A DNA stretch of 64,000 nt from Persephonella sp. (lineage in GTDB: Bacteria; Aquificota; Aquificia; Aquificales; Hydrogenothermaceae): assembly GCF_015487465.1 (NCBI RefSeq), contig NZ_WFPS01000008.1, forward strand, positions 10,139 to 74,138. The letters are read 5' to 3'. The notes beneath the pieces were generated by a model. That model searched no databases, was not told the DNA's origin, and saw only the letters and a program-made list of their open reading frames with translations. Numbering within the stretch: the stretch's first letter is position 1; each line of letters begins with the position of its first letter. Shown piece after piece: positions 4,004 through 56,637 of this stretch. Both the position numbers and the translations under genes were made by a program.

Positions 4004-5901
4004 GAAGAAAAGAAAGAAAGCTACTTTTTGATTATCTGCCTGTTTTCCTGATACTTTTGAGCATTCTTCTATCTATATATTTTATGGTTCCAAAGGTTCA
4101 GGAAATTATAGAAAACAGCATAATAAAAAATGCGATAGTTCCATCTGTATCAAAAGGTTTAGACAAAATTATTCTACAGATAGAAAAGGACGCTTCACGG
4201 GTTGGACTAAAAGAGCTTTTCAAAAACAAAAAATTCACCTCTTGGCTTGAAGATAAGATATACATATTTATTAATGATGATGTTAAATATGCGTACATTC
4301 TTTATTTTGATAAAGACGGCAAAATAAGATATCTTGCGGACTTTTCAAAAGAGGACAGGGCAAGATACTGGCAAACCTTTAATGCTTTTGACAGTGCGAT
4401 AGAGAAAGTATTAAAAGAAAAGAAAGCTGTTGTAATAAAACAGTCAGATTATACAGGAATCTGGCTAACCCTTATAAAACCAATAAAAATAAATAATCAG
4501 GTAAAAGGGGCATTTGTAATTGATTTTTCTATAAACAAACTTCAGGAAATACAGAGTATACTCAACAGAATAAAAGAGTTTATCCTTGCCGTTTCTGTAT
4601 TTATACTCCTTTCTATATTTGTTTCAGTTTATCAGTTTATCAGATACAAGAAGAACCTCAAAAAAATGTATATTGATCCGCTAACAGGTGTGTATAACAG
4701 ACTTTTTATGTATGACAATATAGATCTGTTAAAAAAGGGTTATTATACAACACTTATAATTGATATTGATTTTTTTAAAAGAATAAATGACACATACGGG
4801 CATGATGTCGGAGATTATGTTCTCAAAGAAGTAGCAGAAAGATTAAAAAGATGTATAAGAGAAGATGAAGACATTCTTGTAAGGTATGGTGGGGAGGAAT
4901 TTCTGCTTTTTATAAAATCCAATCCACATTCTGAAGAATACAGATACAACATTATCCAGCTTGCAAACAGGCTCAGGACAGAAGTTTCAAAAAATGTTAT
5001 CACTTACAACAACATAAAGATGAAAGTAACCATATCAATAGGGGTCGCTTTATGCAGAGAAAATACGGATATTGATCAGATGATTAAACTTGCAGATATG
5101 GCTCTCTACAGGGCAAAACAGAACGGAAGAAACAGGGTTGAGGTTTATGATAAAGGGCTTGAAGCAAACGATAAAGGAATAGCAATCATAAAGGAAGCGA
5201 TTGATAAAAACGGGGTAGTATGCTGGTTTCAGCCTATCTACAATTTGAAAACAGGAAAAGCTGTAAGATACGAATCACTTGTAAGAATTGTGGCAGAAGA
5301 CGGCAAACTTATTTATCCCCATCAATTTTTAAATGCCATAAGAAGAACATATGTTCATGTTGATCTAACAAAAAAAGTGATTGAGTTCAACGTTAGAACA
5401 CTGCTTGACAATCCTAAAATGAGGATAAGCATGAACCTTTCTGCCCTTGATATATACAACGACGACATAATTGATTACCTTGACTTTTTGATAATAAATA
5501 AAAAGCTTGCAAGTAGGCTCACAATAGAGATACTTGAGTCTGAGGATATTGAGGATTATGAATTTTTCAAGGAAAAAATAATGAGAATAAAAGAGATAGG
5601 GTGCAGTATCGGTATTGATGACTTTGGTGCAGGATACTCCAATTTTGCACACATAGTAGAACTAAACCCTGAATTTTTAAAAATAGATGGATCATTAATA
5701 AAAGATATTGATATAAACAAAAGATCAATAGCTATAGTAAAAGCTATAAAACATTTTGCTGATGAGCTTGGTATAAATGTTATAGCAGAGTATATACATT
5801 CTGAATACATACTGAGAAAAGTTCTTGAAGTTGGAATTATATATGGTCAGGGCTACTATCTGAAAGAGCCTCTCCCATTAAGAAAAAGAAAATCTGCATG
5901 A
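4000..5901 (+). CDS. membrane-anchored GGDEF-EAL (c-di-GMP turnover) protein
   Basis: Two TM segments flank a periplasmic region. Motifs: GGDEF (RYGGEEFLLF) and EAL-domain (YESLVR, DDFGAGYSN, QGYYL). GTG start. Confidence 0.9.
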   Translation: MRRKERKLLFDYLPVFLILLSILLSIYFMVPKVQEIIENSIIKNAIVPSVSKGLDKIILQIEKDASRVGLKELFKNKKFTSWLEDKIYIFINDDVKYAYILYFDKDGKIRYLADFSKEDRARYWQTFNAFDSAIEKVLKEKKAVVIKQSDYTGIWLTLIKPIKINNQVKGAFVIDFSINKLQEIQSILNRIKEFILAVSVFILLSIFVSVYQFIRYKKNLKKMYIDPLTGVYNRLFMYDNIDLLKKGYYTTLIIDIDFFKRINDTYGHDVGDYVLKEVAERLKRCIREDEDILVRYGGEEFLLFIKSNPHSEEYRYNIIQLANRLRTEVSKNVITYNNIKMKVTISIGVALCRENTDIDQMIKLADMALYRAKQNGRNRVEVYDKGLEANDKGIAIIKEAIDKNGVVCWFQPIYNLKTGKAVRYESLVRIVAEDGKLIYPHQFLNAIRRTYVHVDLTKKVIEFNVRTLLDNPKMRISMNLSALDIYNDDIIDYLDFLIINKKLASRLTIEILESEDIEDYEFFKEKIMRIKEIGCSIGIDDFGAGYSNFAHIVELNPEFLKIDGSLIKDIDINKRSIAIVKAIKHFADELGINVIAEYIHSEYILRKVLEVGIIYGQGYYLKEPLPLRKRKSA

Positions 5902-5914
5902 TCTTAGACAGAAT

Positions 5915-5942
5915 TCCCCGGGCGGATTCGAACCGCCGACCT
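5915..5942 (-). repeat. 28-nt duplicate of the tRNA-Arg 3' end (att-like direct repeat)
   Basis: tccccgggcggattcgaaccgccgacct is identical to 6653..6680 inside the intact tRNA. No anticodon or D arm is present here. Confidence 0.85.
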
Positions 5943-6010
5943 GATATAGATAATTTATCAGCTGTCCAATAGATTTAAAGCATAGGAAACAATATGCAAG
6001 TATAATTTCT

Positions 6011-6208
6011 TCAAACTGTTTGTAGCAATTGTTCTATATTTTCTCTCTTCAGTTCTCTACTTGCGTTTAATATTTCTATCCCTACAGGTTTACCATCTTC
6101 TGAATAATCTACAATTATATTTGGTGTTATTTCTTCTGTATAAGCGATCGGTTTATCCGTTAATTTTATATAAAGTGCATTTGCTTCTTTATCAAATTTT
6201 ATCTCCAT
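6011..6208 (-). CDS. DUF2283-family small protein (antitoxin-like)
   Basis: 65 aa. The pattern MEIKFDKEANALYIKL...IVDYSEDGKPVGIEILNAS is characteristic of DUF2283. It overlaps the upstream gene by 10 nt. Confidence 0.7.
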   Translation of the reverse strand: MEIKFDKEANALYIKLTDKPIAYTEEITPNIIVDYSEDGKPVGIEILNASRELKRENIEQLLQTV

Positions 6209-6438
6209 GGTTTTTTGCCTCTGTCAAAATATACAGTTATTATAATACTGCTTTCTGGGTTTAAAACAACCTTTAAGGTTCTATTTCCAAAATCTTTAAT
6301 AACTTTGTAATACCTGTGCTCTGTATATGATTCTTCAATTATTTCATCAGGATTTTTTAAGGTCTCAAGGACCCACTCCTTTTTGATTTTTCTTTCTTTG
6401 ATCCTTTCTAAAGCATGTTTTGAAAATCTGTAGTTCAC
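6199..6438 (-). CDS. DUF4258-family small protein (toxin-like)
   Basis: 79 aa. The N-terminal FSKHALERIKERKI pattern is typical of DUF4258, which is commonly paired with DUF2283. Confidence 0.6.
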   Translation of the reverse strand: MNYRFSKHALERIKERKIKKEWVLETLKNPDEIIEESYTEHRYYKVIKDFGNRTLKVVLNPESSIIITVYFDRGKKPWR

Positions 6439-6558
6439 TTTCCCTTTTATACCTCTCCAAAAGCAAATTTATCCTTGTTACTATATTATAAGAAAACAAA
6501 TAGATACTGATAATGAACCTTTCTATGTGAAAAATGGGTGCAAAAGTAAGATCAAAAA

Positions 6559-6598
6559 TTTAGAGAAATTTAGAATAATTTAGAAAGATTTAGAATAG
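6559..6598. repeat. four tandem 10-bp repeats TTTAGARWRA
   Basis: tttagagaaa tttagaataa tttagaaaga tttagaatag is read directly, with an exact 10-bp period. It lies between the TA-like pair and the tRNA. Confidence 0.85.
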
Positions 6599-6650
6599 AA
6601 ATTTTCTATAAAATCTTTTAGTTTCAATGTTTAGCGTTGATATTAAAGAA

Positions 6651-6724
6651 TGTCCCCGGGCGGATTCGAACCGCCGACCTCGAGATTAGGAATCTCGCGC
6701 TCTATCCTTCTGAGCTACGGGGAC
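6651..6724 (-). tRNA. tRNA-Arg (anticodon CCT)
   Basis: The reverse complement folds as a cloverleaf. Acceptor GTCCCCG/CGGGGAC, D arm GCTC/GAGC, anticodon stem CGAGA/TCTCG with loop TTCCTAA, T arm GGCGG-TTCGAAT-CCGCC. No CCA is encoded. Confidence 0.9.
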
Positions 6725-8022
6725 TGAGGAAGAAGCTGAACTTCTGTATAATTATTATCACCAAAATATTTTCTTAAATACTGATCTATATCCCTCTTTG
6801 TAACTTTTTCAATATTTTGTGTATATTTTATGTCGTAATAAATATCCTCTGCAACAGATGCCGCATACCCCAGAGCTTCTGCGTCGTGTGTTACCTCCTC
6901 CCTTGCAAATACTTCGCTGTTTATTATCTTTCTTTTTGCATTTTCAATAATCTCTTCAGGGATACCTTTCTCTTTAAACTCTTTTATTATCTTAAAAAGC
7001 TCCTTTTTCACCCTGTCCACCTTATCAACATCTGTAACAAAATAAAAAAGAAACTGGCTTGTTCCCCTGTGGGATAAATAACCCCCATAAACAGCCTGAA
7101 CAAGACCTGTTTCTCTCAGTTTCTGGTAAAGAACAGATGTTCTTCCTCCTGTAAATATCTCCTCAAGCACATTGGCTGTAAAGCTCTCTCTATCGCTTAT
7201 AGGTGGAGCCTGCCAACCTATCGCAACATAAGCCCTTGTTATCTGGGGTTTTCTGATGATCTTTTTTCTTATCTCTTTTTGTGGAGGTTCAAGAGGAACC
7301 TTTGGAGGTTTGTAATGTTTTCCCTTTACCTTACCGAATGTTTCCTTTATCTCTTTCAAAACTTTGTCTTTATTTACATTTCCAACAACAACAACATAGG
7401 TGTTGGAAGGAACATAATGGGAGTAAAAGTATTCCTTAACAAGTTTTTGATCAAACTTTTCTATTGTTTCCCTGTATCCTATAACAGGGTGTTTGTAGTT
7501 GCTAACCTTATACGCAAGTTTGTTATATGTATCCCACAGAACGCTTTTTGGATTATCCAGATGTCTGTTCAGCTCTTCAAGAACTATAGGTTTTTCTTTT
7601 TCTATCATTTTTTCAGAAAGGGTTGGTGCTGTCGTCATGTAATAAAGGTATCTGAGGGATTCTTTCCAGAAAGGTGATGCTATCTCAACATGATAAAATG
7701 TAAAATCTGTGCTTGTTCCTGCATTTATACTTCCTCCTTTTTTCTCTATCTCAAACTCTATCTCACCGGGTTTTGTGTATTTTGTTCCGTTGAAAAGCAT
7801 ATGCTCAAGGAAATGGGAAAGCCCTCTTTCCCTGTCATTTTCAAAAACAGAACCAACCCCAAACCATACCTGAATAGCGACAGCCTGAGTATCTTTTCTC
7901 TCTTTTATTATTGCTGTGACGCCATTTTCAAGTTTTTCAATATAAATATTTTTTATCCTCTGTCCTGCATAACTTAATGTTGTCATAGCTACCACCATCA
8001 AAATTATTATTTTTTTCATCAT
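6715..8022 (-). CDS. M16 family zinc peptidase (pitrilysin-like), secreted
   Basis: Signal peptide and the inverted zincin motif HFLEHMLFNGT. The last codons overlap the tRNA-Arg 5' end. Confidence 0.85.
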   Translation of the reverse strand: MMKKIIILMVVAMTTLSYAGQRIKNIYIEKLENGVTAIIKERKDTQAVAIQVWFGVGSVFENDRERGLSHFLEHMLFNGTKYTKPGEIEFEIEKKGGSINAGTSTDFTFYHVEIASPFWKESLRYLYYMTTAPTLSEKMIEKEKPIVLEELNRHLDNPKSVLWDTYNKLAYKVSNYKHPVIGYRETIEKFDQKLVKEYFYSHYVPSNTYVVVVGNVNKDKVLKEIKETFGKVKGKHYKPPKVPLEPPQKEIRKKIIRKPQITRAYVAIGWQAPPISDRESFTANVLEEIFTGGRTSVLYQKLRETGLVQAVYGGYLSHRGTSQFLFYFVTDVDKVDRVKKELFKIIKEFKEKGIPEEIIENAKRKIINSEVFAREEVTHDAEALGYAASVAEDIYYDIKYTQNIEKVTKRDIDQYLRKYFGDNNYTEVQLLPQSP

Positions 8023-10634: not shown

Positions 10635-11725
10635 TGTTAATAACAAAAATCTTCAAGCTGGAAGACTTCAGGGAAAGCATTCCCTTTACAGCTATAGGTG
10701 CAAGAACATGTTATTCCTCTGGAAATCTTGAATATCTCTTAAATGATCCAAGGGTTGTAAGCAGGGAAGAAAGGGCAAAATTTCTGTCAAAGCTGGGTAA
10801 CTACAAACATTTCAGCGTTTTTGCCCATTCATTTGCTTACAAAGACCTTTCAGATGTTGATGAAAAAATTATTGACAGCTACCTACCTGAAGAAATAAAA
10901 AATCTACCAAAAAAAGAAAAGGCAAAAATTACTGCTATGAAGATAGCCTCAACAAAGTTTAAGTCCCACTACAACCCAGAATACCCAACAGTAATAGGTA
11001 TCTCCCTCCGCCACTACCTTGAGGATCTTCTTGCCGAAGATGAGGAAAAATATTACAAAACATTTGAAAAGATGGCAGACTTTGATATTCCCATAAAGCC
11101 CCTTGGCTCAAGAGGAAACACAACTCTTATAGGTCTTTTAAAAGATTACGACGGATATGCCGTATTCTTCATACAGGACATATCAAGAACAATGACCCAT
11201 CAGCTTGTAAGACATACTGCCCTTAATTACAGTCAGAGAAGCCAGAGATATGTAAGAGAAGATGAAAACCTTCTCATTATACCTCCATCTGTAAAAAAAT
11301 CTGAGTTTGAGCTACAGGACAAAACCCTTGTTGAAAACTATCTGAACCTGATTAACAGCTACAAAGCATTTATTGAGAGAGCTGATATAAAGGAAAATTT
11401 AAAAGGGGAAGTTATATCAAGGATCAATGATTTTACTGAAGAATATAAAAAGACAGAAAGACTAAAGCTTGAGGATATTTTTAGACTTACAGACCAGCTT
11501 GCCCAGACTGTTTATGACCTTTCAGTTTACAACGGAAAGGTAAAAAGAGAAGATGCAAGATTTATACTTCCACACGGTAGAAAAACAACAATTGTTGTAT
11601 CGGGAACTATCAGCTGGATAAAGGATTTTATTGTAAAAAGAACAGATCCCCACGCCCAGTGGGAGATACAGAATGTTGCAAACCAGATGAAACAGCTACT
11701 ATTAGAGCAGGGTATAGATGTTTAA
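10634..11725 (+). CDS. thyX: flavin-dependent thymidylate synthase, long form
   Basis: ThyX signature RHTALNYSQRSQRY and REDARFILP. ATG at 10634 (TGATG overlap, AAGGAG 7 nt upstream). About 360 aa, so it carries large insertions relative to typical ThyX. Confidence 0.85.
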   Translation: MLITKIFKLEDFRESIPFTAIGARTCYSSGNLEYLLNDPRVVSREERAKFLSKLGNYKHFSVFAHSFAYKDLSDVDEKIIDSYLPEEIKNLPKKEKAKITAMKIASTKFKSHYNPEYPTVIGISLRHYLEDLLAEDEEKYYKTFEKMADFDIPIKPLGSRGNTTLIGLLKDYDGYAVFFIQDISRTMTHQLVRHTALNYSQRSQRYVREDENLLIIPPSVKKSEFELQDKTLVENYLNLINSYKAFIERADIKENLKGEVISRINDFTEEYKKTERLKLEDIFRLTDQLAQTVYDLSVYNGKVKREDARFILPHGRKTTIVVSGTISWIKDFIVKRTDPHAQWEIQNVANQMKQLLLEQGIDV

Positions 11726-13304
11726 AAGAAAAATAAAGCTTCTAAAAAGATTTAAAGATATATCAGCAACTTTATCAAAGCTGGGCTTTTACAATATATA
11801 CGACTACTTTAAAATTCTTTTCGGAATTGAGGTTGAACCGGGGGCAAAACCAAGAAGAATTAGAGAAGCCCTTGAAAAACTGGGTCCATCTTTCATAAAA
11901 CTCGGTCAGATACTCAGCACAAGGCCGGACATTGTTCCTGTTTACATCATAGATGAGCTTATAAAACTTCAAGATAGGGTTGCTCCTGTAGATTTTGGGA
12001 TCATTCAAAAGACCTTAAACAGAAATTATGGAGACAGGCTATATGAAATATTCTCATATATAGATCCAACTCCCCTTGCATCAGCTTCTATATCACAGGT
12101 TCATGTGGGCTACTTAAAAACAGGAGAAAAAGTTGCTATAAAAGTAAAAAGACCTAATCTTGAGCAGATCATTCAGCTTGATTCAGAGCTTATGTTAATG
12201 GTTGTTGATTTTCTTGAAAGACATTTTAAGAATGTAAAAGAGTTTAATCTCAAAGGTGTGATCCATCAGTTTAGAAGAACAACGCTTCAGGAAGCTGATT
12301 TTTCCATAGAAGCACAGAACATAAAGATATTTCAGGAAAACTTCAGAGATTATCCCGGTTTCAAAGTGCCTAAATGTTTTTATGATATATCAACACCCGA
12401 AGTTCTCATAACAGAGTTTATAGAAGGAACAAAAATATCTGAGGTTGAAACACTGAAAAAAAAAGGTCTTGATCCTGAGGATATCGCTGTCAGGCTGACA
12501 GATGCATACTTTAAGATGGTTTTTATAGATGGGGTTTACCACGCAGACCCTCACCCAGGAAATCTATTTGTATTAGATGACGGAACAATTGTAGCTATTG
12601 ATTTTGGAATGATAGCATTCCTGTCAAAAACCAAGAAAAAATACTTTTTTGATTATATTATAGCCGTTACAACCCTTGATCTGAACCTTGCGATACAGTT
12701 TTATGAAGGCTTTAATATGTTCACACCAAGAACAGATTTTGGGAACTTTGAGGCTGATCTGCAGTTTTTCCTTGAAAAATACCACAACAAAAGGTTAGAC
12801 GAGATAAACTTAAGGGAGATGATTGAGGACATAATAAGTTTTATAAGAGAAAATCATCTAAAACTTCCAACAGATATAGCATATCTTGGAAAAGCTGCCC
12901 TTAACCTTGAAGGAACGGTAAGAAAGCTGAATCCGACTTTTAACCCTACAGAAAGACTGAAAAATTTTGTTGGTGTTTCAACAAAAGATTACATAAAAGA
13001 AAAGTTATCTGAGATAAGAGATGTTACAGAACTTTCTTTTTATTTAATATTCAAGATAGAACATATATACAGGCTTCTAATCAGAGAAAGGGTTACATTC
13101 CAGATTATATTCAAGGATCTGGAAGAACTTCAAAAATTTTATAAAATGCAGACAGGAAAGATAGCATTTGCGATATTATTTGTTGGCTTGCTCATATCAT
13201 CTGCACTTTTTTATATGTCTGGAAAAGATACAACAGGTCTGATATTACTTGTAATATCATTTTTTGCAGGTTTAATATCTTTCTACAAAGTATTTAGATT
13301 TTAG
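11718..13304 (+). CDS. ABC1/UbiB family atypical kinase
   Basis: LGPSFIKLGQILSTRPDIVP, ASASISQVH, HADPHPGN and two C-terminal TM helices. Confidence 0.85.
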   Translation: MFKRKIKLLKRFKDISATLSKLGFYNIYDYFKILFGIEVEPGAKPRRIREALEKLGPSFIKLGQILSTRPDIVPVYIIDELIKLQDRVAPVDFGIIQKTLNRNYGDRLYEIFSYIDPTPLASASISQVHVGYLKTGEKVAIKVKRPNLEQIIQLDSELMLMVVDFLERHFKNVKEFNLKGVIHQFRRTTLQEADFSIEAQNIKIFQENFRDYPGFKVPKCFYDISTPEVLITEFIEGTKISEVETLKKKGLDPEDIAVRLTDAYFKMVFIDGVYHADPHPGNLFVLDDGTIVAIDFGMIAFLSKTKKKYFFDYIIAVTTLDLNLAIQFYEGFNMFTPRTDFGNFEADLQFFLEKYHNKRLDEINLREMIEDIISFIRENHLKLPTDIAYLGKAALNLEGTVRKLNPTFNPTERLKNFVGVSTKDYIKEKLSEIRDVTELSFYLIFKIEHIYRLLIRERVTFQIIFKDLEELQKFYKMQTGKIAFAILFVGLLISSALFYMSGKDTTGLILLVISFFAGLISFYKVFRF

Positions 13305-40301: not shown

Positions 40302-41855
40302 CTAATCATAATAAAACCTGTCTTTTATAAACTCAAAAACAAAACAGCTTTCTTTTAAAAGTTTTTCATACCTTTTTATATCAACAGGTTTTGGACTTTT
40401 GATATATATCTCATAGGGAACAGCCTTTATAAAACTGTCTTTTATATAGATTATGTTCACTTTTTCTCCGGGATTTACCGTTATACCCTCTTTTATCAGT
40501 GTGCCTGCTGTTTCTGAAATGTCATTTTTAACCCTGTATTCCTCTACTAACTTTGACAGTCTTTTTCTGACAATAAGATCCTGAACACAGAATTTTCCCT
40601 CCCTTAGCATTACAGCGTATTTTTCAAAAAATGTGTCAATATCTGACAGTTTTTTTAAAAGCTCTTTTTTGTTTTTTGCTTTTGACAGGTGGTTCAGGAA
40701 ATCTTCCTGAAACTTTTTAATAAAACGGGGAGTGTCTGATCTTCTCAGCTCAATGCCCCTCACTTTTATCCTGCCGTCTTTAAACTTTCCGTAAAATCTA
40801 TTTGGAACGCCTACACCGTCTTCTTTTGATGGAACAAATACTATCCAGTCATACACACCTTCAAGTTTAACCTCAAAAGGAACTGTCTCCTCCAGCACCC
40901 CTTTATATTTTCTGGAAAGCTTTTTGTTTATATTGTCCTTTAGCTTGTTATAAGCTTCCTCAGTAGCTCCTTTTTTGTATATCCATATACAGTCTGTCAG
41001 TCCGTGTAATAAACTAAAACCTTCTTTTTCTGCTATATCTTTAACAAAAAGAAGAAGATCCCTTCCTATAGCTGTTGTTGTTTCGTGGGACTCTATTCTT
41101 CCAAAAACAGCATTTTTGTAGCCTAAATAACCAAAGCTGACAACCAGAAGCCATTTTATACCTATCTGCCTTCTGTCGTATTTATCTCCTTCTTTTTTCT
41201 TTAGCTTTTTATATTGTTTTCTTCTTTCTATTAAAAACTTCAGAGTTTTTGGGAGTATCCCCTCTTTTTGTGTGCATATACGGTAGCCGGCGGTAGGCAG
41301 TCTGTGAATGCATTTTTTGTGCTTGCAGTTTATTGTTTCGTAAGAAAGATTGTAGTTTGCGATAATTGATGGATACATTGAGAAAAAATCAAGCTCTGCA
41401 ACATTTTCATAAATTCCTGCCTCCGGTCTGAATGTCAGTCCTCCCCTGTCTATTTTCAACAGGTCAACTGCTGTTTTTGGATCTTCAGGATTGCTTTTCC
41501 TGTAGGGGATCAGATAACCCTGTTCAAAGGCTATCTTCATCTCAAGTGATGTTATTGGCGTTCCTATGGTTGTCCTTGATAGCTGTTGCAGGGGCAATGA
41601 GGATATCCTTGACAGCTCAATCATACCGTCAAGACCTATCTCTCTGTAGAAAAATGAGTTTGAGGGATCTATATGTATCCTTCCTAAGAAAAATGACGAG
41701 TCCGGCATAAAAACAGTTTTTCCGTATGAAAAGAATGATCTTCCTTTCTTTAAAACAGGAACTCCCCCTTCCCTGCTGAGTGATGAAACCCCTGATCTTA
41801 AAAGATTTGGAACAATAAGCTGATCTCCGTGTTCTATGATAAGTATGTCAGGGTC
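40302..41855 (-). CDS. family B DNA polymerase, C-terminal segment (-1 frame relative to the N-terminal segment)
   Basis: The frame is open from 41855 (DPDILIIEHGDQ...) through the ORF-track Met at 41708. Motif A LDFFSMYPSIIANYN, motif B-like KWLLVVSFGYLGY, motif C HGLTDC, thumb-like NRFYGKF..KVRGIELRRSD. Confidence 0.85.
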   Translation of the reverse strand, partial: DPDILIIEHGDQLIVPNLLRSGVSSLSREGGVPVLKKGRSFFSYGKTVFMPDSSFFLGRIHIDPSNSFFYREIGLDGMIELSRISSLPLQQLSRTTIGTPITSLEMKIAFEQGYLIPYRKSNPEDPKTAVDLLKIDRGGLTFRPEAGIYENVAELDFFSMYPSIIANYNLSYETINCKHKKCIHRLPTAGYRICTQKEGILPKTLKFLIERRKQYKKLKKKEGDKYDRRQIGIKWLLVVSFGYLGYKNAVFGRIESHETTTAIGRDLLLFVKDIAEKEGFSLLHGLTDCIWIYKKGATEEAYNKLKDNINKKLSRKYKGVLEETVPFEVKLEGVYDWIVFVPSKEDGVGVPNRFYGKFKDGRIKVRGIELRRSDTPRFIKKFQEDFLNHLSKAKNKKELLKKLSDIDTFFEKYAVMLREGKFCVQDLIVRKRLSKLVEEYRVKNDISETAGTLIKEGITVNPGEKVNIIYIKDSFIKAVPYEIYIKSPKPVDIKRYEKLLKESCFVFEFIKDRFYYD

Positions 41856-42460
41856 TTTTTTTTTATAAAGTCTGAAAGCTCATCTGTCTGGCTGTCAAAT
41901 ATCAGTGATCTTCCTTCAAAATTGACTATAAGAGGTGGAAGATTTTTTGTGTGATTTGGGTTTTCCCCTTCTGTTTCAGGTTTTATCTCCATAATTTTCA
42001 GGGGAAATACCATGTAGTCTGTACTTGAGTAATCATCAATCTTTTTGTAAAGGGTTTTTCCATTTTTACAGATCTCCTCAAGCTGGCAGAAAGGAAATAT
42101 CTTTTTTTCAAACATAAAAAGCTGTGAAGGGGTCAGCTGGAGGTTGTAAAGGTCTGTTTCCTGAAACTCTTTTCTACTTTTTACAAAGTTTACCGCCTTA
42201 TGGTAAACGGCAGGACTGTCTGACACGATTTTAAAAAGCTGTATCTCCCCATCAATAAGATCTTTTTTTCTTGTTTTTTTTATCTTTATACTGTTTCCAA
42301 ATCTCTTTTTTAGCAGTTTTAAAGCTTTTGTATCCTCTGCTTTGATAAAAAAGTAGGGTCTGAACCTTCTGAAAACAGACTTTCTATCTCCTTTTTCTCC
42401 TATGAGCCACAGGACTATACCGTAAGAGTTTGAGTAAACATCAAGGATCTGGTATCTCAT
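41834..42460 (-). CDS. family B DNA polymerase, N-terminal segment (ends at TAG 12 nt past the A9 tract)
   Basis: MRYQILDVYS...FRPYFFIK is a PolB N-terminal-domain pattern. The frame ends ..DFIKKKTLTYLS*. Confidence 0.8.
   Translation of the reverse strand: MRYQILDVYSNSYGIVLWLIGEKGDRKSVFRRFRPYFFIKAEDTKALKLLKKRFGNSIKIKKTRKKDLIDGEIQLFKIVSDSPAVYHKAVNFVKSRKEFQETDLYNLQLTPSQLFMFEKKIFPFCQLEEICKNGKTLYKKIDDYSSTDYMVFPLKIMEIKPETEGENPNHTKNLPPLIVNFEGRSLIFDSQTDELSDFIKKKTLTYLS
41855..41864 (-). other. A9 tract + G containing an in-phase A AAA AAG heptamer at the polB frame break
   Basis: The coding strand reads ATA AAA AAA AAG ACC. A -1 slip (or an A10 tract) reads GAC CCT GAC... and fuses both polB segments without a stop. 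Confidence 0.7.
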
Positions 42461-42689
42461 CTTTTATCCTCTGGATCTGTTTTTCTATCTCAATCAAAAT
42501 TCCAAAGAGGATGATTTCCATAGGATATACAGATGGGGCGTTTCCTATAGCCTGTGAATGCTTTTTTGCGTAAGAAAAAAGCCTGTCAAGTATCTGTCTG
42601 TCTTCTTTCCTCAAGGCTTTTCTAAACTCTGACAGCTCTTTTTGTTTCAGTTTCACAAGCTGTGTTGCAGAAGGCACAGTTTTTCCCAT
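42441..42689 (-). CDS. hypothetical 82-aa helical protein (lexA-polB cassette member)
   Basis: Its start lies 1 nt after the upstream stop codon, and its 3' end overlaps the polB start by 20 nt. No recognised motif. Confidence 0.5.
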   Translation of the reverse strand: MGKTVPSATQLVKLKQKELSEFRKALRKEDRQILDRLFSYAKKHSQAIGNAPSVYPMEIILFGILIEIEKQIQRIKDEIPDP

Positions 42690-42690
42690 C

Positions 42691-43137
42691 TCAGTTGTCC
42701 ATTGATATGTTTGTTATCATGAAGTTTTCTCCAACAACAAAAACCGGAATATCAATCCTGTTTATAAATGCCAGAGCAGATGTGAAAGAGTTTTCCCTCT
42801 CTTTATCAGGAATGCTCTGATCCTTTAAAAGAGTTTCTATGTCTGATATAACAAGAACATCAGGGTTCTCTTTTATAGCTTTTTCCACAGCTTTTTTAAG
42901 CTGAAATATATTAAATACTCTTATTATTTTTATTTTCTCCAGAAGCTTTTCAGCATTAATCTTTTCAAATTTTGCAGCGTTAGATATCAAAAAAGGATTA
43001 AACCTATTCCCACAGTCTATAAGAGATACTTTCTGTGATCTTCTTGTAAATTTGTAAATAAGGTAGTGGTAGTGATATTTTCCGTTTTTTATCTCTATTT
43101 TGTTTTTTAGCCGATGAAGAAGATGTCCTTTTTTCAT
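42691..43137 (-). CDS. RecA/RadB-fold-like protein lacking a Walker A motif (ImuA/SulA-like)
   Basis: KVSLIDCGNRFNPFLI...IKIIRVFNIFQL...NPDVLVISDIETLL matches the strand/helix pattern after the P-loop in RecA/Rad51/KaiC-type cores. No GxxxxGK[ST] is present. The ATG lies 1 nt after the lexA stop. Confidence 0.4.
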   Translation of the reverse strand: MKKGHLLHRLKNKIEIKNGKYHYHYLIYKFTRRSQKVSLIDCGNRFNPFLISNAAKFEKINAEKLLEKIKIIRVFNIFQLKKAVEKAIKENPDVLVISDIETLLKDQSIPDKERENSFTSALAFINRIDIPVFVVGENFMITNISMDN

Positions 43138-43138
43138 C

Positions 43139-43756
43139 TTAAAACCTCCTTTTCAGTCCTTTAAATGATCTTATGATCCCTTTTACTACCCCCTGAACCT
43201 GAACCCTCTCAGCCTCAAAATACATAGGCTCCATATTAGAGTTTGCCGGAACGAGCTTCACAAAACCTTTTTCCCGGTAAAATCTTTTCAGAGTTGCCTC
43301 CTCCCCATCAATAAGAACAACGGCAACCTCTCCGTTCAGAACATCTTTTCTGTTTTCAACGATTATTATGTCACCGTCTAATATGTGATCTTCAATCATT
43401 GAGTATCCTTTAACCCTCAGAGCGTAGCAGTTTTCACAATCTATCAGGTCTGTAATATCCACATGCTCAAAAATATCTTCCTGAATCTGTATAGGTTCCC
43501 CTGCAGCTATCTCCCCATAAAAAGGAAATCTTAATGGGTCTTCATCAAACAACCTATCCCTGTTTATTCTGAATTTTCCCCTTCCTGTTTTCTGCAGGTA
43601 TCCTTCCTTCACAAGCTTTTGCAAATGCTCATGTATCGTTGAAACAGCAGAAAGACCAAAATGATTGGCGATCTCTTTCAGTGTCGGGTTGTAACCTTTC
43701 TGGTAGGTAAAACGGGCTATAAACTGCAAAATCTCTTTCTGTCTTTTTGTGAGCAA
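43139..43756 (-). CDS. lexA: LexA repressor (S24 peptidase)
   Basis: N-terminal winged helix (LTKRQKEILQFI...GYNPTLKEIA), cleavage-site region YGEIAAGEPI, Ser in GYSM and Lys in ATLKRF. TTG start with AGGAGG 8 nt upstream. Confidence 0.9.
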   Translation of the reverse strand: MLTKRQKEILQFIARFTYQKGYNPTLKEIANHFGLSAVSTIHEHLQKLVKEGYLQKTGRGKFRINRDRLFDEDPLRFPFYGEIAAGEPIQIQEDIFEHVDITDLIDCENCYALRVKGYSMIEDHILDGDIIIVENRKDVLNGEVAVVLIDGEEATLKRFYREKGFVKLVPANSNMEPMYFEAERVQVQGVVKGIIRSFKGLKRRF

Positions 43757-43852
43757 TTTCCTAACCTCCTGATTTTTAATATAACCGAAAAAAAACCGAA
43801 AATCAAGATGATAAAAATCAATAAAGGTTTATATTTTTAGTGGAGGGTAAAT

Positions 43853-45298
43853 ATGGAGATTTTCCTGAAACTTCCAAATGAGATTGAGGTTATACAGCCT
43901 GCTGTTGATTTTGTTTACAGATGGGCTGTTGAAAACGGTCTTGGCGAGAAAGAGGCTGAGGAGTTTGCCACAGCTTTTGATGAGCTTATAACAGATGTTG
44001 TTCTGTTTGCTTTTGAAGAAAAGGGTGAGTTTTCTGTATTTTTAAAAAGTAGTCTTTCACAGCTTGAGATAACAGTTCAGGAGCTTGGAGAACCATTTGA
44101 TCCTGAAAGGCATAAGTATTCTGTTGAAAGATTTATCAGGGAAGGAAATTTTGATGGTGCTGGATTTGAGATAATAAGAAATCTTGCTGATGATTTCATT
44201 TATATATACAAGGGAAGGGCAGGGAAAGAGTTCAGGATCATAAAGTATATAAAACACAGACATATCACACATATACTCCCTGAAGAAAAATTAAAGGCAG
44301 AGGCTGAAAAGGCTGTAGGCTATCAGATATCCCCTGTTTCTGAAGAAGATGCTGAGGATATAGCAAGGCTGATATACAGGTCTTACGGTTATACTTATCC
44401 TAAAGAAGACATGTATTACCCTGACAGGATAGTAAAAGCCATAAAGGAAGGGAGAAAGTTTGGTGTTATAGTGAGAACAGATAAAGGGGAAGCTGTTGGG
44501 TATTTTGCTGTCATAAAGATGCCAGATTCTAACATCGGCGAGGTTGGGGAGGTTGTTGTATCACCAAAACACAGGGGAAAAGGAATAATGAAAATGATGA
44601 TGAAGGCTCTTATAGATATGGCAAGATCAAAAGGTCTTTACGGTCTGTTTGGGGAGGCTGTAACAGTTCATACCATAAGCCAGAAGGTAAACGCAAAATA
44701 CGGCTTTAAATCAACAGCTCTTGTTCTTGGATTTTTTCCCTATGCAAAATACAAAGGTTTTGAACACAAACAGCAGAGAATATCTGTGGTTATTGATTTT
44801 CTTCCCCTTGTTGAAAGAAAAGAAGTTAAGGTTTTTCTGCCTGATCCCTACAAAAATATACTGAAAAAAATATACAAAAATCTGGGAATAACAGTTATAA
44901 ATATGCCTGTGAGAAAACAGCCCTCTCTAAAAGAAAGATCAAAGATTGATCTGCAGATAAATTACAGATTTTCTGTGGCGGTTATTGTTGTTGATAGATA
45001 CGGAAAGGACTTTTTTAGCCGTCTGGATAAAAAGATAGACTCCCTCAAGAAAAAAGGGATAAAAGGGATATATATTGATCTTCCCCTTGATGATCCTTAC
45101 ACCAAAGAAGCTGCAAAACAGCTTATGGAAAGAGGTTTTATCTTCAGCGGGCTTATGCCCCTTTTCCATAAAAATAAGGATCACCTGAGAATGCAGATGC
45201 TGACAGAAAATATAGATCTTAGATGGATCAATACCTTTTCAAATATGGCTAAGAAGATAAAGAGGTTCATAAACAGACAGATAAAAAAGAGGGATTAA
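43853..45298 (+). CDS. RsbW/SpoIIAB-like HATPase domain fused to a GNAT acetyltransferase domain and an uncharacterised C-terminal region
   Basis: The N-terminal ~130 aa resembles anti-sigma kinases (FDELITDVVLFAF, VQELGEPFDP). The GNAT motif A is VVVSPKHRGKGIMKMMM. GGAGGG RBS. Confidence 0.65.
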   Translation: MEIFLKLPNEIEVIQPAVDFVYRWAVENGLGEKEAEEFATAFDELITDVVLFAFEEKGEFSVFLKSSLSQLEITVQELGEPFDPERHKYSVERFIREGNFDGAGFEIIRNLADDFIYIYKGRAGKEFRIIKYIKHRHITHILPEEKLKAEAEKAVGYQISPVSEEDAEDIARLIYRSYGYTYPKEDMYYPDRIVKAIKEGRKFGVIVRTDKGEAVGYFAVIKMPDSNIGEVGEVVVSPKHRGKGIMKMMMKALIDMARSKGLYGLFGEAVTVHTISQKVNAKYGFKSTALVLGFFPYAKYKGFEHKQQRISVVIDFLPLVERKEVKVFLPDPYKNILKKIYKNLGITVINMPVRKQPSLKERSKIDLQINYRFSVAVIVVDRYGKDFFSRLDKKIDSLKKKGIKGIYIDLPLDDPYTKEAAKQLMERGFIFSGLMPLFHKNKDHLRMQMLTENIDLRWINTFSNMAKKIKRFINRQIKKRD

Positions 45299-45598
45299 AT
45301 GGAGTATCACAAAACTGATCAAACGCTTTTTGTGAAGCTAAAGTCAGATCTAACATACCCTTCTGTAAAAAGGCTGGAAACCCTTGTGAATGTTGAGGAT
45401 GTTGAAAATCTTGTGATTGATCTGACAGAGGCAAAAATAGTGGACAGTGAGGGTGTAAGGTTTATTTATACTGTTATGAAGGAAGGGCTTCAGATAACCC
45501 TTGTAAACCCTCCATACATATTTGATAAAATCATTGATATATTAAAACTAAAGAGCTACATGAAAGATCTGAAAATAGTCAGGGAGGAAAGGAGATGA
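45299..45598 (+). CDS. STAS domain protein (anti-sigma-factor antagonist-like)
   Basis: 99 aa. LVIDLTEAKIVDSEGVRFIY has Ser at the SpoIIAA/RsbV phospho-site position. Confidence 0.8.
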   Translation: MEYHKTDQTLFVKLKSDLTYPSVKRLETLVNVEDVENLVIDLTEAKIVDSEGVRFIYTVMKEGLQITLVNPPYIFDKIIDILKLKSYMKDLKIVREERR

Positions 45599-54322: not shown

Positions 54323-55171
54323 TTAATCCCTGTCATAATCTACCTCATGTTCATATTCATATTCCTCATTCAAATTATATCTTTCCTGACTTTCGGAACT
54401 TTTTTCCTCAATTTCATTTGATTTTTCCATCATGTACTCCTGCAATTCGCTTGTGTGTTCTTCTACCTCATGGGATTTTTCTGTCATGTACTCCTGCATT
54501 TCGCTTGTGTGTTCTTCTGTTTCGTGAGATTTTTCCATCATATCATCATAGTGCTCATTATTTTCGTACTCGTATTCATGCTCATGCTCGTGTTCATATT
54601 CGTGTTCATGCTCATGTTCTTTAGAGTATTCTTTTTCGTGGTGGTTTTCTCTTAGTTCTTCAACTATCTCATGCATGTATTTTTCTCTTTCTTTTTTGCT
54701 CATCTCCATCATCTTTTCTTTTAACTGGTTCATATAGATGTATCTTTTGTCAGAGGGAGCTGTTTTCACCTTTTCAACAAGGTTTTTAATCTGCATTTTA
54801 GGGTCAGTTGCTGCAGCCGGTGTTCCACCGTTAGCTGGTGTAGCAGCAGGGTCAGTTGCTGCAGCCGGTGTTCCACCGTTAGCTGGTGTAGCAGCAGGAT
54901 CAGTTGCTGTAGCCGGTGTTCCACCGTTAGCTGGTGTAGCAGCAGGGTCAGTTGCTGTAGCCGGTGTTCCACCGTTAGCTGGTGTAGCAGCAGGATCAGT
55001 TGCTGTAGCCGGTGTTCCACCGTTAGCTGGTGTAGCAGCAGGATCAGTTGCTGTAGCCGGTGTTCCACCGTTAGCTGGTGTAGCAGCAGGATCAGTTGCT
55101 GTTCCTACCTGGGCATAAGCCCCAATACTTGATGCTAAAATAGCAGCCATTAAAAGTTTTGCCTTTTTCAT
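54323..55171 (-). CDS. secreted tandem-repeat protein with a His/Glu/Met/Tyr-rich C-terminal region (putative periplasmic metal-binding protein)
   Basis: Signal peptide, 6.3 copies of TATDPAATPANGGTPA, HEHEHEYEHEHEHEYEYE, and three copies of EKSHExEEHTSExQEYM. Confidence 0.75.
   Translation of the reverse strand: MKKAKLLMAAILASSIGAYAQVGTATDPAATPANGGTPATATDPAATPANGGTPATATDPAATPANGGTPATATDPAATPANGGTPATATDPAATPANGGTPAAATDPAATPANGGTPAAATDPKMQIKNLVEKVKTAPSDKRYIYMNQLKEKMMEMSKKEREKYMHEIVEELRENHHEKEYSKEHEHEHEYEHEHEHEYEYENNEHYDDMMEKSHETEEHTSEMQEYMTEKSHEVEEHTSELQEYMMEKSNEIEEKSSESQERYNLNEEYEYEHEVDYDRD
54801..55102. repeat. 48-bp tandem repeat, about 6.3 copies, in-frame within the CDS
   Basis: Near-identical units (ggtgttccaccgttagctggtgtagcagcaggRtcagttgctgYagcc) are visible directly. 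Confidence 0.9.
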
Positions 55172-55231
55172 GGCTAAATACCTCCTGAGTTTAATTTGAT
55201 TAAATACTACAGGAGGAAGGTTACCGAAATG

Positions 55232-55930
55232 TTACCGGGATTGTTTTTCTTCTTTTAGGAGGTCTTTTCGTGTCATCTTTACTTTTATTATTATTTCTAC
55301 CCTGTCATTCCTTCTTCTCAGAAGAGGGTGGTTCCATGTGTAAATAGGTTTTGTGTTTCCAAATCCTGCTGCTGATATTTTTTTGGGATCAACGCCGTTT
55401 TTTATAAGAAATTCAGCAACTGCAACAGCCCTTTTGACAGATAATTCCCATGGATCAACTCCTTTTGGGGGATTAATGTCTGTATGCCCTTCTATTCTGA
55501 TGTCTATTTCATTTTTCGAAAGGGCTTGCAGTGCTTTTGCTACGCTTTTTAGAGCTTTTTTTGCATTTTCCGAAAGCTGGGCGCTGTCTTTTTGAAAAAC
55601 AACATCATTGAACAGCCTTAATATGACATAATCCTCAATAACCTCAATCTGATACGCATGGATAGGCAGTATTCTTTTAATTCTTTCTTTTAATGATAAT
55701 GCCATATCCTTCGGCAGCATACTTATAGGTGGGAGGAGAGAGAGGGTCTTTGTATATTGAAGAACCCTTTCCCCCTGAAAATACCACAAAAATTTCATCA
55801 GCTTTTTTATGTCCAGAACACTCATTGAGTATAGAAGGATAAAGAATGTAAGGAGAAGGGACATCAGATCGCTGAAACTTATAAGCCAAGCTGGAACACT
55901 GGGGCATTCTTCCTTTTTTTTCCTTGCCAT
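55232..55930 (-). CDS. motB: flagellar stator protein MotB paralog (distal copy)
   Basis: N-terminal plug/TM with conserved Asp (WLISFSDLMSLLLTFF) and an OmpA-like C-terminus (IEGHTD, RRRNDRVEI). Confidence 0.85.
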   Translation of the reverse strand: MARKKKEECPSVPAWLISFSDLMSLLLTFFILLYSMSVLDIKKLMKFLWYFQGERVLQYTKTLSLLPPISMLPKDMALSLKERIKRILPIHAYQIEVIEDYVILRLFNDVVFQKDSAQLSENAKKALKSVAKALQALSKNEIDIRIEGHTDINPPKGVDPWELSVKRAVAVAEFLIKNGVDPKKISAAGFGNTKPIYTWNHPLLRRRNDRVEIIIKVKMTRKDLLKEEKQSR

Positions 55931-55938
55931 CTTTTCAC

Positions 55939-56637
55939 CTATGAAGCGTCAATGACAAACTCAACCCTTCTGTTTTTTGCTCTGTTCTTTGGAGTGTCGT
56001 TAGGTGCTATAGGTCTGTAAGGACCGTATCCCCTTGCAGATAGATATTTTTCAGGATAACCACACTGGAGAAACATTTTTAAAATGTTAAGAGCTCTGTA
56101 TGCAGAAAGCTCAAGATTTGAACTGTATCTTTTAGTTCTTATTGGAGTGTTGTCTGTATGCCCTTCTATAACCACGGTGAAGCCTGCCTGTTTTAACCTT
56201 CTGCACAAATCAAATATGTATGGAACTGCCTCTGGATACGGGTTTGCCCTTCCTGGTGGAAAAAATTTATCAGTGTTTATCCTAAATCTGATTATACTGC
56301 CGTGCTGGATAATGTCTGCCTGAATTCCGGCTTTTTGTAATTTTGCCTGTATGTCGTAAAGGGCTTTTGTAAGCATTTTTTTTCTTTTTATCTTTGGATA
56401 CATATCTGGAAACTCAAGGGGAACGTTTGACTGGTTCAAAAGTTTTTGCTCAAGATATATCTTTCTTCCACCTAAAGATTCTGTAACCCCTTTGATAACC
56501 ATGTGGAACTTTTCAAGGGATATGGTGCCCATTGAAAACAGAAGGATAAAGAATGTAAGGAGAAGGGACATCAGGTCCCCAAAACTTATAAGCCAGCCGG
56601 GTATTTTTTTGCATTCTTCTTTTTTTTTGCGTGCCAT
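55939..56637 (-). CDS. motB: flagellar stator protein MotB paralog (proximal copy)
   Basis: WLISFGDLMSLLLTFF TM with Asp, and an OmpA-like C-terminus (IEGHTDN.P, NLELSAYRA, NRRVEF). ATGTAATGG overlap region with motA. Confidence 0.85.
   Translation of the reverse strand: MARKKKEECKKIPGWLISFGDLMSLLLTFFILLFSMGTISLEKFHMVIKGVTESLGGRKIYLEQKLLNQSNVPLEFPDMYPKIKRKKMLTKALYDIQAKLQKAGIQADIIQHGSIIRFRINTDKFFPPGRANPYPEAVPYIFDLCRRLKQAGFTVVIEGHTDNTPIRTKRYSSNLELSAYRALNILKMFLQCGYPEKYLSARGYGPYRPIAPNDTPKNRAKNRRVEFVIDAS

Follow-up and report, generated by a model that had tools for sequence, protein, structure and literature searches.

In archaea, the genes for the B-family DNA polymerase PolB2, an inactivated RadA and a small helical protein of arCOG07300 are linked, as described by Makarova, Krupovic and Koonin in 2014, and several bacteria carry the same three genes, some of them together with lexA in a predicted operon, e.g., Leptospirillum ferriphilum LFML04_0990-0993 (PMC4104785). 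Timinskas, Timinskas and Venclovas named the two partners iRadA and PPB2 in 2025 and modelled a PolB2:iRadA:PPB2(3) 'mutasome', a heteropentamer that has its basis in AlphaFold-Multimer and AlphaFold3 models of 40 operons with ipTM values near 0.8 (PMC11791011). In bacteria they found the order iRadA-PPB2-PolB2 only, with lexA enriched beside it, and they defined an 'MGRT' arm in PPB2 and a D(K/R) motif in PolB2 (PMC11791011). A clamp-binding motif is present at the C-terminus of iRadA or PolB2 in a part of the family only. One archaeal PolB2, Sulfolobus Dpo2, is by experiment a damage-inducible extender in translesion synthesis (PMC7390963, PMC8764526). Here we analyse a stretch of 64,000 nucleotides from a Persephonella sp. 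genome (contig NZ_WFPS01000008.1, positions 10,139 to 74,138; below called the window), in which a compact minus-strand cassette at 40302..43806 consists of five open reading frames (ORFs) that encode four genes, lexA, iRadA, PPB2 and polB2, the last of which needs a change of reading frame. Our reading is that the bacterial PolB2 mutasome operon would be an archaeal-derived module for translesion synthesis under SOS control, in which PolB2 is recoded in Persephonella, and we give this a probability of roughly three in four.

By gene content and motifs the cassette is assigned to this known operon family. Its four genes, their order and their placement on one strand agree with the published operon, motif C of its polymerase has a single Asp, the exonuclease is dead and the D(K/R)GG element is present, its iRadA likewise lacks the ATPase motifs and its PPB2 likewise carries an MG(R/K)T arm. 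A sister member from the Hydrogenothermaceae, Sulfurihydrogenibium sp. YO3AOP1, is given as 'LexA iRadA PPB2 PolB2, type 1a', with motif C HILTDSIWV (PMC11791011 supplement), and full-length Hydrogenothermaceae proteins of the Sulfurihydrogenibium YO3AOP1 type are about 55% identical to the polymerase in the window over 98% of its length. An earlier model-made reading of the window, here called the sequence-only reading, had left it undecided whether the arrangement was new; it is not, since the same operon has already been described (PMC4104785, PMC11791011). What differs from the published operon is that the Persephonella polB2 needs a -1 change of frame at a run of nine A followed by G (A9G), and furthermore that iRadA is short, that MGKT stands for MGRT in PPB2 and PKTA for FKTA in PolB2, and that no clamp-binding motif was seen by inspection. 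The novelty thus lies in a genus-wide programmed frame change in a polymerase gene, not in the operon, and it appears to be unreported: we found no report of a frameshift in Persephonella or in PolB2 in the literature, where absence is no proof. The survey in PMC11791011, which mentions no frameshift, discarded truncated sequences, and Persephonella would therefore have dropped out of it.

Two better known systems have a related logic. The ImuA-ImuB-DnaE2 cassette, often linked to lexA, is also controlled by LexA and also combines an ATPase-dead protein of the RecA superfamily with an error-prone polymerase of a replicative family, but its components are unrelated to those discussed here, in which the partner is derived from RadA rather than from RecA and the small helical PPB2 is added. 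Membership of the Persephonella cassette in that group was considered and rejected, as it contains neither a Y-family ImuB nor a C-family DnaE2 domain and its sole polymerase is of family B. Dpo2 of Sulfolobus islandicus and S. solfataricus is a polymerase of the same clade with the same pair of operon partners, and it provides the experimental basis for a role in translesion synthesis and mutagenesis; it differs in that archaeal regulation goes via Orc1/Cdc6-type factors instead of LexA, and in that recoding is unreported there.

Consider now the polymerase gene at the downstream end of the cassette. Its zero frame, ORF-a, ends with TAG after 208 codons and can be aligned with the first ~200 residues of full-length relatives of PolB2, and the rest of the gene, ORF-b, lies in the -1 frame and holds the Pfam domain DNA_pol_B (E = 1.8e-36). 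When codons 1-202 are joined to the -1 frame, the result is a protein of 719 amino acids that aligns end to end with full-length relatives. The junction reads ATA AAA AAA AAG ACC, and a shift by -1 or the addition of one A gives ...FIKKK-DPDILIIEHGD..., so that the predicted junction peptide of full-length Persephonella PolB2 is ...FIKKKDPDILIIEHGDQ.... In an alignment across the junction, D203, P204, D205, G212 and D213 are invariant in the PolB2 family, and sister taxa encode the junction peptide in frame, as AAG AAA AAA GAT in L003 and as AGA GAA GAC in L001. The sequence-only reading had recognised the last gene as a B-family polymerase, which the Pfam match bears out, but took 42460..40302 for one uninterrupted unit and thereby overlooked the conserved frameshift. 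Its description of four tightly packed minus-strand reading units is otherwise sound, and on re-reading every junction lies where it was placed (the lexA stop, the ATG at 43137, the 1-nucleotide gap and the 20-nucleotide overlap): one nucleotide separates lexA from iRadA, one separates iRadA from PPB2 (42690), and PPB2 and polB2 share 20 (42460..42441).

The junction was compared in seven Persephonella lineages, i.e., the window, L084, L085, L002, L081/L088, L086 and L087, with amino-acid identities of 50-85%. All seven have exactly nine A and then G at the junction and a stop in the zero frame 4-6 codons further on (6 in the window), and in the -1 frame all of them read on with DPD(I/L)L(I/L)(I/V)(E/D)(Y/H)GD. 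The flanks of A9G vary: it is preceded by ATA, TTA or CTA and followed by GACCCTGAC, GATCCCGAT, GACCCAGAT or other sequences. When polB2 of six lineages is aligned by codon over 2.2 kb, where only 9% of the third positions are invariant, the 12 nucleotides T-A9-G-A form the longest invariant block in the gene, and the next longest has 8 nucleotides. Synonymous sites are saturated between the lineages, with a proportion of synonymous differences (pS) of 0.6-0.85, and the ratio of nonsynonymous to synonymous change (dN/dS) is 0.11-0.31 in ORF-a and 0.09-0.15 in ORF-b. Because these ratios are low on either side of the junction, both halves of polB2 are under purifying selection.

It is conceivable that the gene is genuinely split, so that a 208-residue N-terminal protein and a separately initiated C-terminal polymerase assemble non-covalently, as split B-family polymerases are known in archaea (Makarova 2014, PMC4104785) and annotators call two ORFs at this locus. 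A separate C-terminal polymerase would require a start codon of its own, and ahead of the invariant DPD..GD..YG the -1 frame contains no ATG, GTG or TTG in any of the seven lineages. The earliest candidate start in six of them is found 49-107 codons downstream, inside conserved sequence and at a position that differs each time; L084 has an additional GTG at codon 14, which also comes after DPD..GD. The invariant residues D203, P204, D205, G212 and D213 as well as Y246 and G247 all precede the first ATG of the -1 frame, and no ribosome-binding site is evident at the candidate internal starts. We therefore regard a split gene as very improbable.

The same low standing is given to the notion that polB2 is a pseudogene in Persephonella or that its break is a homopolymer sequencing error. 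A single frameshift in a run of A is the commonest artefact and also a common inactivating mutation, and gene callers annotate the truncated C-terminal protein only. But independent assemblies made in separate projects, from isolates, metagenome-assembled genomes and metagenomes, show the same A9G, the gene has no further stops or frameshifts, and where L083 has additional ORF breaks, these are stretches of N at scaffold gaps. Moreover, the slip site, where an error or a chance mutation is supposed to have occurred, is the most conserved nucleotide block in polB2, and the low dN/dS in both halves persists in spite of saturated synonymous change.

A third possibility is that A9 and A10 are the two states of a phase-variable switch in the DNA, by which the mutagenic polymerase is heritably on or off in subpopulations. 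Homopolymer tracts are classic sites of slipped-strand mispairing (PMC3711429), a switchable mutator would be adaptive, and minority alleles would stay hidden in assemblies, which give a consensus. Nevertheless, every assembly examined in the seven lineages has A9 and none has A10 or A8, where the protein P0024 alone accounts for 42 blocks of the assembly collection, and the protein database has no full-length Persephonella PolB2. In a protein search, relatives with more than 60% identity, all of them Persephonella where named, are annotated only as C-terminal fragments of 409-468 amino acids, and those with ~50-55% identity, from Sulfurihydrogenibium and other Aquificales, are full length with 702-740. 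No in-frame (A10) Persephonella allele was present in a collection of 5.8 billion proteins, and when metagenome and viral collections were scanned for junctions with A8 to A11, this gave one A9 contig of an already sampled lineage and nothing in viruses. A switch of this kind is therefore given little credence, if slightly more than the two accounts above.

The conservation of A9G, the purifying selection on both halves and the lack of a start in the -1 frame thus make a sequencing error, a pseudogene or a truly split gene very unlikely, and they indicate programmed recoding, either by transcriptional slippage or by -1 ribosomal frameshifting. We consider it likely that Persephonella makes its SOS-controlled PolB2 only through obligatory, evolutionarily fixed recoding at A9G, which, as far as we have found, would make polB2 the first translesion or mutagenic polymerase gene of this kind.

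Two routes of recoding lead to the same protein. When RNA polymerase slips and adds one A to the run (A9 to A10), the messenger would read ATA AAA AAA AAA GAC, and when instead the ribosome shifts by -1 on the heptamer within A9, the unaltered messenger is read with the same result, ...I-K-K-K-D-P-D.... Runs of nine A or T give efficient slippage by bacterial RNA polymerase, and such slippage is used productively by dnaX of Thermus thermophilus (PMC5009743; PMC3711429). The junction has what this route calls for, i.e., a run of at least nine A or T, exact conservation of its length and restoration of the frame by a single added base. Slippage by RNA polymerase would be the likelier of the two routes, with something close to an even chance, and there are three reasons for preferring it. 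Firstly, all nine A's are fixed, including the A at the wobble position of a variable Ile/Leu codon, while the heptamer needs A6G only. Secondly, no Shine-Dalgarno-like element upstream of the site and no stem-loop 3' of it is conserved. Thirdly, T. thermophilus dnaX provides a precedent at a homopolymer run of nine bases (PMC5009743).

Programmed -1 ribosomal frameshifting on A_AAA_AAG, as in Escherichia coli dnaX and without any slippage by RNA polymerase, is the more doubtful route. This heptamer is the most shift-prone one in bacteria (PMC4066793, PMC5009743), it stands in the correct zero-frame phase (AAA AAG) in all seven lineages, and the zero-frame stop that follows within 4-6 codons is near enough, so that an in-phase X_XXY_YYZ heptamer, a nearby stop and conservation across species are all found. 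The stimulators are not: the 60 nucleotides 5' of the slip site have no conserved element resembling the upstream Shine-Dalgarno sequence of dnaX, and no dnaX-like 3' hairpin is conserved, the RNAalifold consensus having -2.9 kcal/mol and no support from covariation. That nine A's are conserved, among them the third position of a variable Ile/Leu codon, is moreover a demand of slippage and not of the ribosome.

The comparison with dnaX can be carried further. In E. coli dnaX (-1 at A_AAA_AAG) and T. thermophilus dnaX (slippage at a run of nine bases), as in Persephonella polB2 with its A_AAA_AAG within A9, the gene that is recoded belongs to a DNA polymerase and the short product terminates a few codons past the site (PMC5009743). 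In both dnaX genes, however, the long product is the unshifted one, whereas in Persephonella the long, functional product needs the shift, and dnaX-type stimulators are not conserved at the slip site. With its need for a shift, polB2 resembles the transposases of insertion sequences or dnaX of Chlorobi, which consists of two ORFs (PMC3711429).

Runs of nine A or T occur at only two other places in the 64 kb, 56620..56628 and 12456..12464, and both are in frame inside genes. The first encodes the N-terminus MARKKKEEC of a MotB/OmpA-like protein (55939..56637, minus strand), and the second encodes TLKKKGLD in a UbiB/ABC1-like protein of 528 amino acids (11718..13304, plus strand). If RNA polymerase slips at A9 in Persephonella, then these two genes would also yield truncated products.

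The polymerase itself is identified from its motifs and profile matches as an archaeal-type PolB2 of the G2 clade. A PolB2 profile finds archaeal PolB in the PDB with E = 6e-81 and E. coli Pol II with 8e-19, and the archaeal-type NCBIfam model NF004416 gives 429 bits, while the Pol II models give 40-89 bits against cut-offs of 570-1435. The polymerase motifs are ELDFFSMYPS (A), KWLLVVSFGYLGYKN (B), HGLTDC (C) and IDRGG (D(K/R)), the last of which (D338-R339) comes 150 residues before L488. Motif C retains only the second Asp of DxD, D490, and this residue and the catalytic Asp of motif A are invariant across the family alignment. The exonuclease site is dead, since the family has DPDIIITDxGDxxILP where canonical PolB enzymes have ..YNGDNFDFPY, the column of the ExoII Asp is occupied by I, L or V, and ExoI DxE is missing. 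An ordinary E. coli-type Pol II (G1) was rejected because the Exo motifs are lost and the Pol II models score far below their cut-offs, and a G3 or Pol-epsilon-like PolB was rejected on account of the dead exonuclease and the single Asp in motif C. In front of D(K/R)GG, 6 of 8 loci from other phyla have F(K/R)(T/S)A or YKTA, and Persephonella and L001 have PKTA; we take this FxxA-like segment, tentatively, to be the modelled iRadA-binding element.

Just after motif A, residues 379-396 of PolB2 (~41327..41274) form a Cys/His cluster, C-x-H-x2-C-x11-C (INCKHKKCIHRLPTAGYRIC), in which C384 and C396 are invariant and C379 is nearly so across the bacterial PolB2 alignment; the cluster may be a metal-binding insert. 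In another PolB2, from L023 (Nitrospiraceae), a lone in-frame stop at 6410..6412 near the 3' end divides the gene into two ORFs of the same frame (4571..6409 and 6413..6838), and this stop could be a sequencing error, a readthrough site or a truncation.

The protein of 148 amino acids encoded downstream of lexA is, as judged from profile and predicted structure, an inactivated member of the RadA/Rad51 family, iRadA. Pfam gives no match for it even at E <= 10, and a single-sequence, word-based search with it found ten Persephonella proteins only, and a profile based on synteny was therefore needed; syntenic homologs were gathered from 85 related loci, and the profile was built from 21 sequences. 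With this profile the best match is RadA of Pyrococcus furiosus (E = 5e-14), followed by DMC1 and Rad51, and the match begins after the Walker A region. Neither a Walker A motif (GxxxxGK[ST]) nor the N-terminal helical domain is present in the 148 residues, and the column of the Walker B Asp is not conserved within the iRadA family alignment. An AlphaFold2 model from an alignment of 121 sequences has a predicted local distance difference test score (pLDDT) of 88 and a predicted TM-score (pTM) of 0.84, and its top Foldseek matches are RadA ATPase domains with probability 1.0 and query TM-scores (TMq) of 0.59-0.67. The sequence-only reading proposed a RecA fold that lacks the P-loop, which agrees with the RadA/Rad51 match, the missing Walker A motif and the RecA-like fold of the model, and noted a likeness to ImuA/SulA proteins; the origin of the protein is archaeal RadA, not one of these. 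An identity as ImuA or another RecA derivative was rejected, since the best matches in both sequence and structure are archaeal RadA, DMC1 and Rad51 and not RecA; the protein is an analogue of ImuA, not an ortholog. In Persephonella iRadA is shortened to ~150 residues, compared with a median of 185 for the iRadA ORFs at related loci. There are also longer homologs, P0184 and P0224 with 292-326 residues and P0212 with 339, and the last carries the PPB2 domain PF26485 and is thus a fusion of iRadA with PPB2, such as Timinskas 2025 describe.

The next product, of 82 amino acids, is identified by similarity, position and predicted fold as PPB2. Although PF26485 (DUF8156) has been precomputed on Persephonella orthologs, a Pfam scan of this protein gave no match even at E <= 10. 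Its homologs stand directly upstream of PolB2 at 58 of the 63 loci described below, and it is clearly similar to the PPB2 of a haloarchaeal plasmid. The N-terminus is MGKTVPS, where MG(R/K)T fits the published MGRT motif, and most of the bacterial homologs and the haloarchaeal one have MGR(T/M); the change from R to K at position 3 is a conservative deviation. A single-sequence AlphaFold2 model (pLDDT 83.6) has a free arm at residues 1-7 and helices at 8-25, 28-48 and 57-78.

The first gene of the cassette encodes 205 amino acids, and by all motif and domain criteria examined its product is classified as a LexA repressor. It has the Pfam domains LexA_DNA_bind, an N-terminal winged helix, and Peptidase_S24, and it scores 168 bits against the NCBIfam equivalog TIGR00498 with a cut-off of 111. 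The cleavage site Ala85-Gly86 and the catalytic dyad Ser119/Lys157 are intact, and the sequence-only impression of a functional LexA is thus plausible.

Upstream of lexA, a promoter scan finds a sigma-70-type promoter with -35 TTGATT (43806..43801), a spacer of 17 nucleotides, TTCGGTTTTTTTTCGGT, and -10 TATATT (43783..43778). The spacer is composed of two direct repeats of TTCGGT (43800..43795 and 43789..43784) that are 11 bp apart (TTCGGT-N5-TTCGGT). The block of 45 nucleotides from TTGATT to the lexA Shine-Dalgarno sequence AGGAGG is identical in 7 of the 7 Persephonella lineages, and the sequence further upstream is unrelated. At the same promoter position GTTCGGTTTTTGTTCGGT is found in L001, a relative from the Aquificaceae, and matches GTTC-N7-GTTC to the letter; the related Aquificota locus L003 has TTTCGGAATAATTTCGG, and other phyla have palindromes, e.g., TGAACNNNGTTCA or GTATACANNTGTATAC. 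The LexA box of alphaproteobacteria is a direct repeat, GTTC-N7-GTTC. The Persephonella repeat has the same direct orientation, here with a period of 11 bp, but its unit is TTCGGT. By its conservation and position the TTCGGT repeat is a candidate operator for LexA, such as autoregulation of lexA would lead one to expect. In the 64-kb window TTCGGTTTTTTTTCGGT is unique when up to 3 mismatches are allowed, and the core CGGT-N7-CGGT has 2 matches where 0.07 are expected by chance. The second of these, at 55223..55237 on the minus strand (CGGTAACATTTCGGT), overlaps the stop codon of a motB-like gene and lies upstream of the gene for a repeat protein; with regard to LexA it is probably a coincidence.

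In spite of the identical 45-nucleotide block, Persephonella has the cassette at two chromosomal locations. A gene for a GNAT fusion protein and ilvB flank it in the window, L084 and L085, and in L081, L086 and L088 its neighbours are dnaN and a Methyltransf_30 gene, which suggests that the whole cassette from lexA to polB2 may relocate as a unit together with its promoter block. L087 is grouped with L081, L086 and L088, whose site adjoins dnaN/gyrB, as against the GNAT-fusion/ilvB site of the window, L084 and L085.

The gene neighbourhood was counted for 63 PolB2 loci with enough upstream sequence, which come from Aquificota, Nitrospirota, Thermodesulfobacteriota, Acidobacteriota, Bacteroidota/Ignavibacteria, Chloroflexota and others. 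PPB2 is found at 58 of them, iRadA at 57 and an adjacent lexA on the same strand at 37, and all four genes come together at 35. The four genes are thus co-conserved among related loci, and the polymerase is no ordinary Pol II; in these respects, as in its general proposal of an SOS-type translesion or mutagenesis module built on a B-family polymerase, the sequence-only reading is consistent with all computational tests and with the published interpretation of the gene set. PolBs on haloarchaeal megaplasmids are ~32% identical to the window polymerase over 97% of its length, and on Halorientalis pHOS100 the two genes upstream of PolB encode homologs of iRadA (hhalign probability 96.9%) and of PPB2 (MGRMNPTF...YRRALRRRDQQYFDALFEYA). 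The whole module is an archaeal import, captured once by bacteria and presumably placed under LexA.

From these parts a working scheme can be put together. LexA would repress its own sigma-70 promoter (TTGATT-17-TATATT) by binding TTCGGT-N5-TTCGGT in the spacer. Upon DNA damage, RecA would stimulate self-cleavage of LexA at Ala85-Gly86, as the intact LexA motifs suggest, and the operon would be derepressed. The four genes would then be translated from one messenger, coupled through the 1-nucleotide spacers and the 20-nucleotide overlap of the layout, and by homology iRadA, a PPB2 trimer and exonuclease-dead PolB2 would assemble as modelled by Timinskas 2025 into a complex that extends from lesions or mismatches as Sulfolobus Dpo2 does. 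Full-length PolB2 of 719 amino acids would arise only when the frame shifts by -1 at A9G, and unshifted decoding would give the N-terminal fragment of 208 amino acids. Recoding might in this way act as a second, post-transcriptional limiter of the mutagenic polymerase, or set its stoichiometry relative to the upstream partners, and the zero-frame product might be a functional by-product, like the gamma subunit from dnaX. Damage induction and translesion or mutagenic activity are known for the archaeal Dpo2 only, and for the Persephonella operon both are inferred.

Instead of a translesion mutasome, the module could serve in replication restart, origin regulation or some other DNA transaction, with PolB2 mainly as a scaffold. 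Makarova 2014 raised a role outside translesion synthesis in view of the linkage to arORC2 in archaea and the apparent inactivation of PolB2 (PMC4104785), and a motif C without its first Asp is in line with this. But the family alignment shows no variation in the catalytic Asp of motif A or in the second Asp of motif C, lexA heads the bacterial operons at 37 of the 63 loci, and the PolB2 of S. islandicus is reported to be catalytically active, damage-induced and required for targeted mutagenesis (cited in PMC11791011, PMC12926913). We judge such another role to be rather improbable.

Several points nevertheless weigh against a translesion module that is controlled by LexA and recoded at A9G. 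Bacterial PolB2 modules are known from in silico prediction only, and for LexA the binding at the direct repeat is inferred from conservation and position, where the single other CGGT-N7-CGGT site in the window (55223..55237) adjoins no repair gene. As FKTA reads PKTA in Persephonella, the modelled contact between PolB2 and iRadA may differ, and by inspection, with no profile search, no clamp-binding (QLxLF-like) motif is evident at the C-termini of iRadA and PolB2 (...GENFMITNISMDN and ...FVFEFIKDRFYYD). The runs of nine in frame inside two other genes of the window mean that A9 as such is tolerated here. The transcriptional and the ribosomal route cannot be told apart by sequence, and when the window was searched for tRNA-Lys genes to weigh these mechanisms, tRNA-Arg only was found.

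What gives the site its interest is that A9G is a clean, genus-wide and comparatively validated recoding site in a cellular, non-mobile gene, of which there are few in bacteria, and that the dosage of the gene that contains it is dangerous. If the efficiency of the shift depends on temperature, nucleotide pools or stress, the mutagenic capacity would be tied to physiology below the level of LexA. Automatic annotation splits or truncates polB2, and surveys that drop truncated sequences miss Persephonella. Since Persephonella marina can be cultivated, the locus offers a bacterial test bed for the PolB2 module. The positions of the features are collected in Table 1.

Table 1. Features of the lexA-iRadA-PPB2-polB2 cassette, in window positions, with product lengths in amino acids (aa)
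Feature	Positions	Strand	Description
lexA	43139..43756	-	205 aa; TTG start; TAA stop 43141..43139; Shine-Dalgarno AGGAGG 43770..43765
iRadA	42691..43137	-	148 aa; ATG at 43137
PPB2 (arCOG07300 / Pfam DUF8156)	42441..42689	-	82 aa
polB2 ORF-a, zero frame	41834..42460	-	208 aa if unslipped; TAG 41836..41834; codons 1-202 are the N-terminal part of full-length PolB2
Recoding site A9G	41855..41864	-	A9 41864..41856, then G 41855; in-frame heptamer A_AAA_AAG 41861..41855
polB2 -1-frame part	40302..41855	-	517 aa; degenerate exonuclease remnant, palm, fingers, thumb
Promoter with candidate LexA operator	43778..43806	-	sigma-70-type; promoter scan

Divergent from lexA, at 43853..45598 on the plus strand, there is a gene for a protein of 481 amino acids in which an HATPase_c_2 domain, resembling an anti-sigma-factor kinase, is fused to a GNAT acetyltransferase, and directly after it one for a STAS-domain protein of 99 amino acids. 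By domain content the two look like a partner-switching pair with an acetyltransferase output, and the same pair flanks the cassette in L085. Further away on the minus strand, 55232..55930 and 55939..56637 encode tandem MotB/OmpA-like paralogs of 232 amino acids, both of which begin with MARKKKEEC. Next to them, 54323..55171 on the same strand encodes a predicted secreted protein of 282 amino acids with ~7 tandem copies of TATDPAATPANGGTPA, the C-terminal half of which is rich in His, Glu and Tyr (HEHEHEYEHEHEHEYEYE), a composition that suggests that the protein may bind metal.

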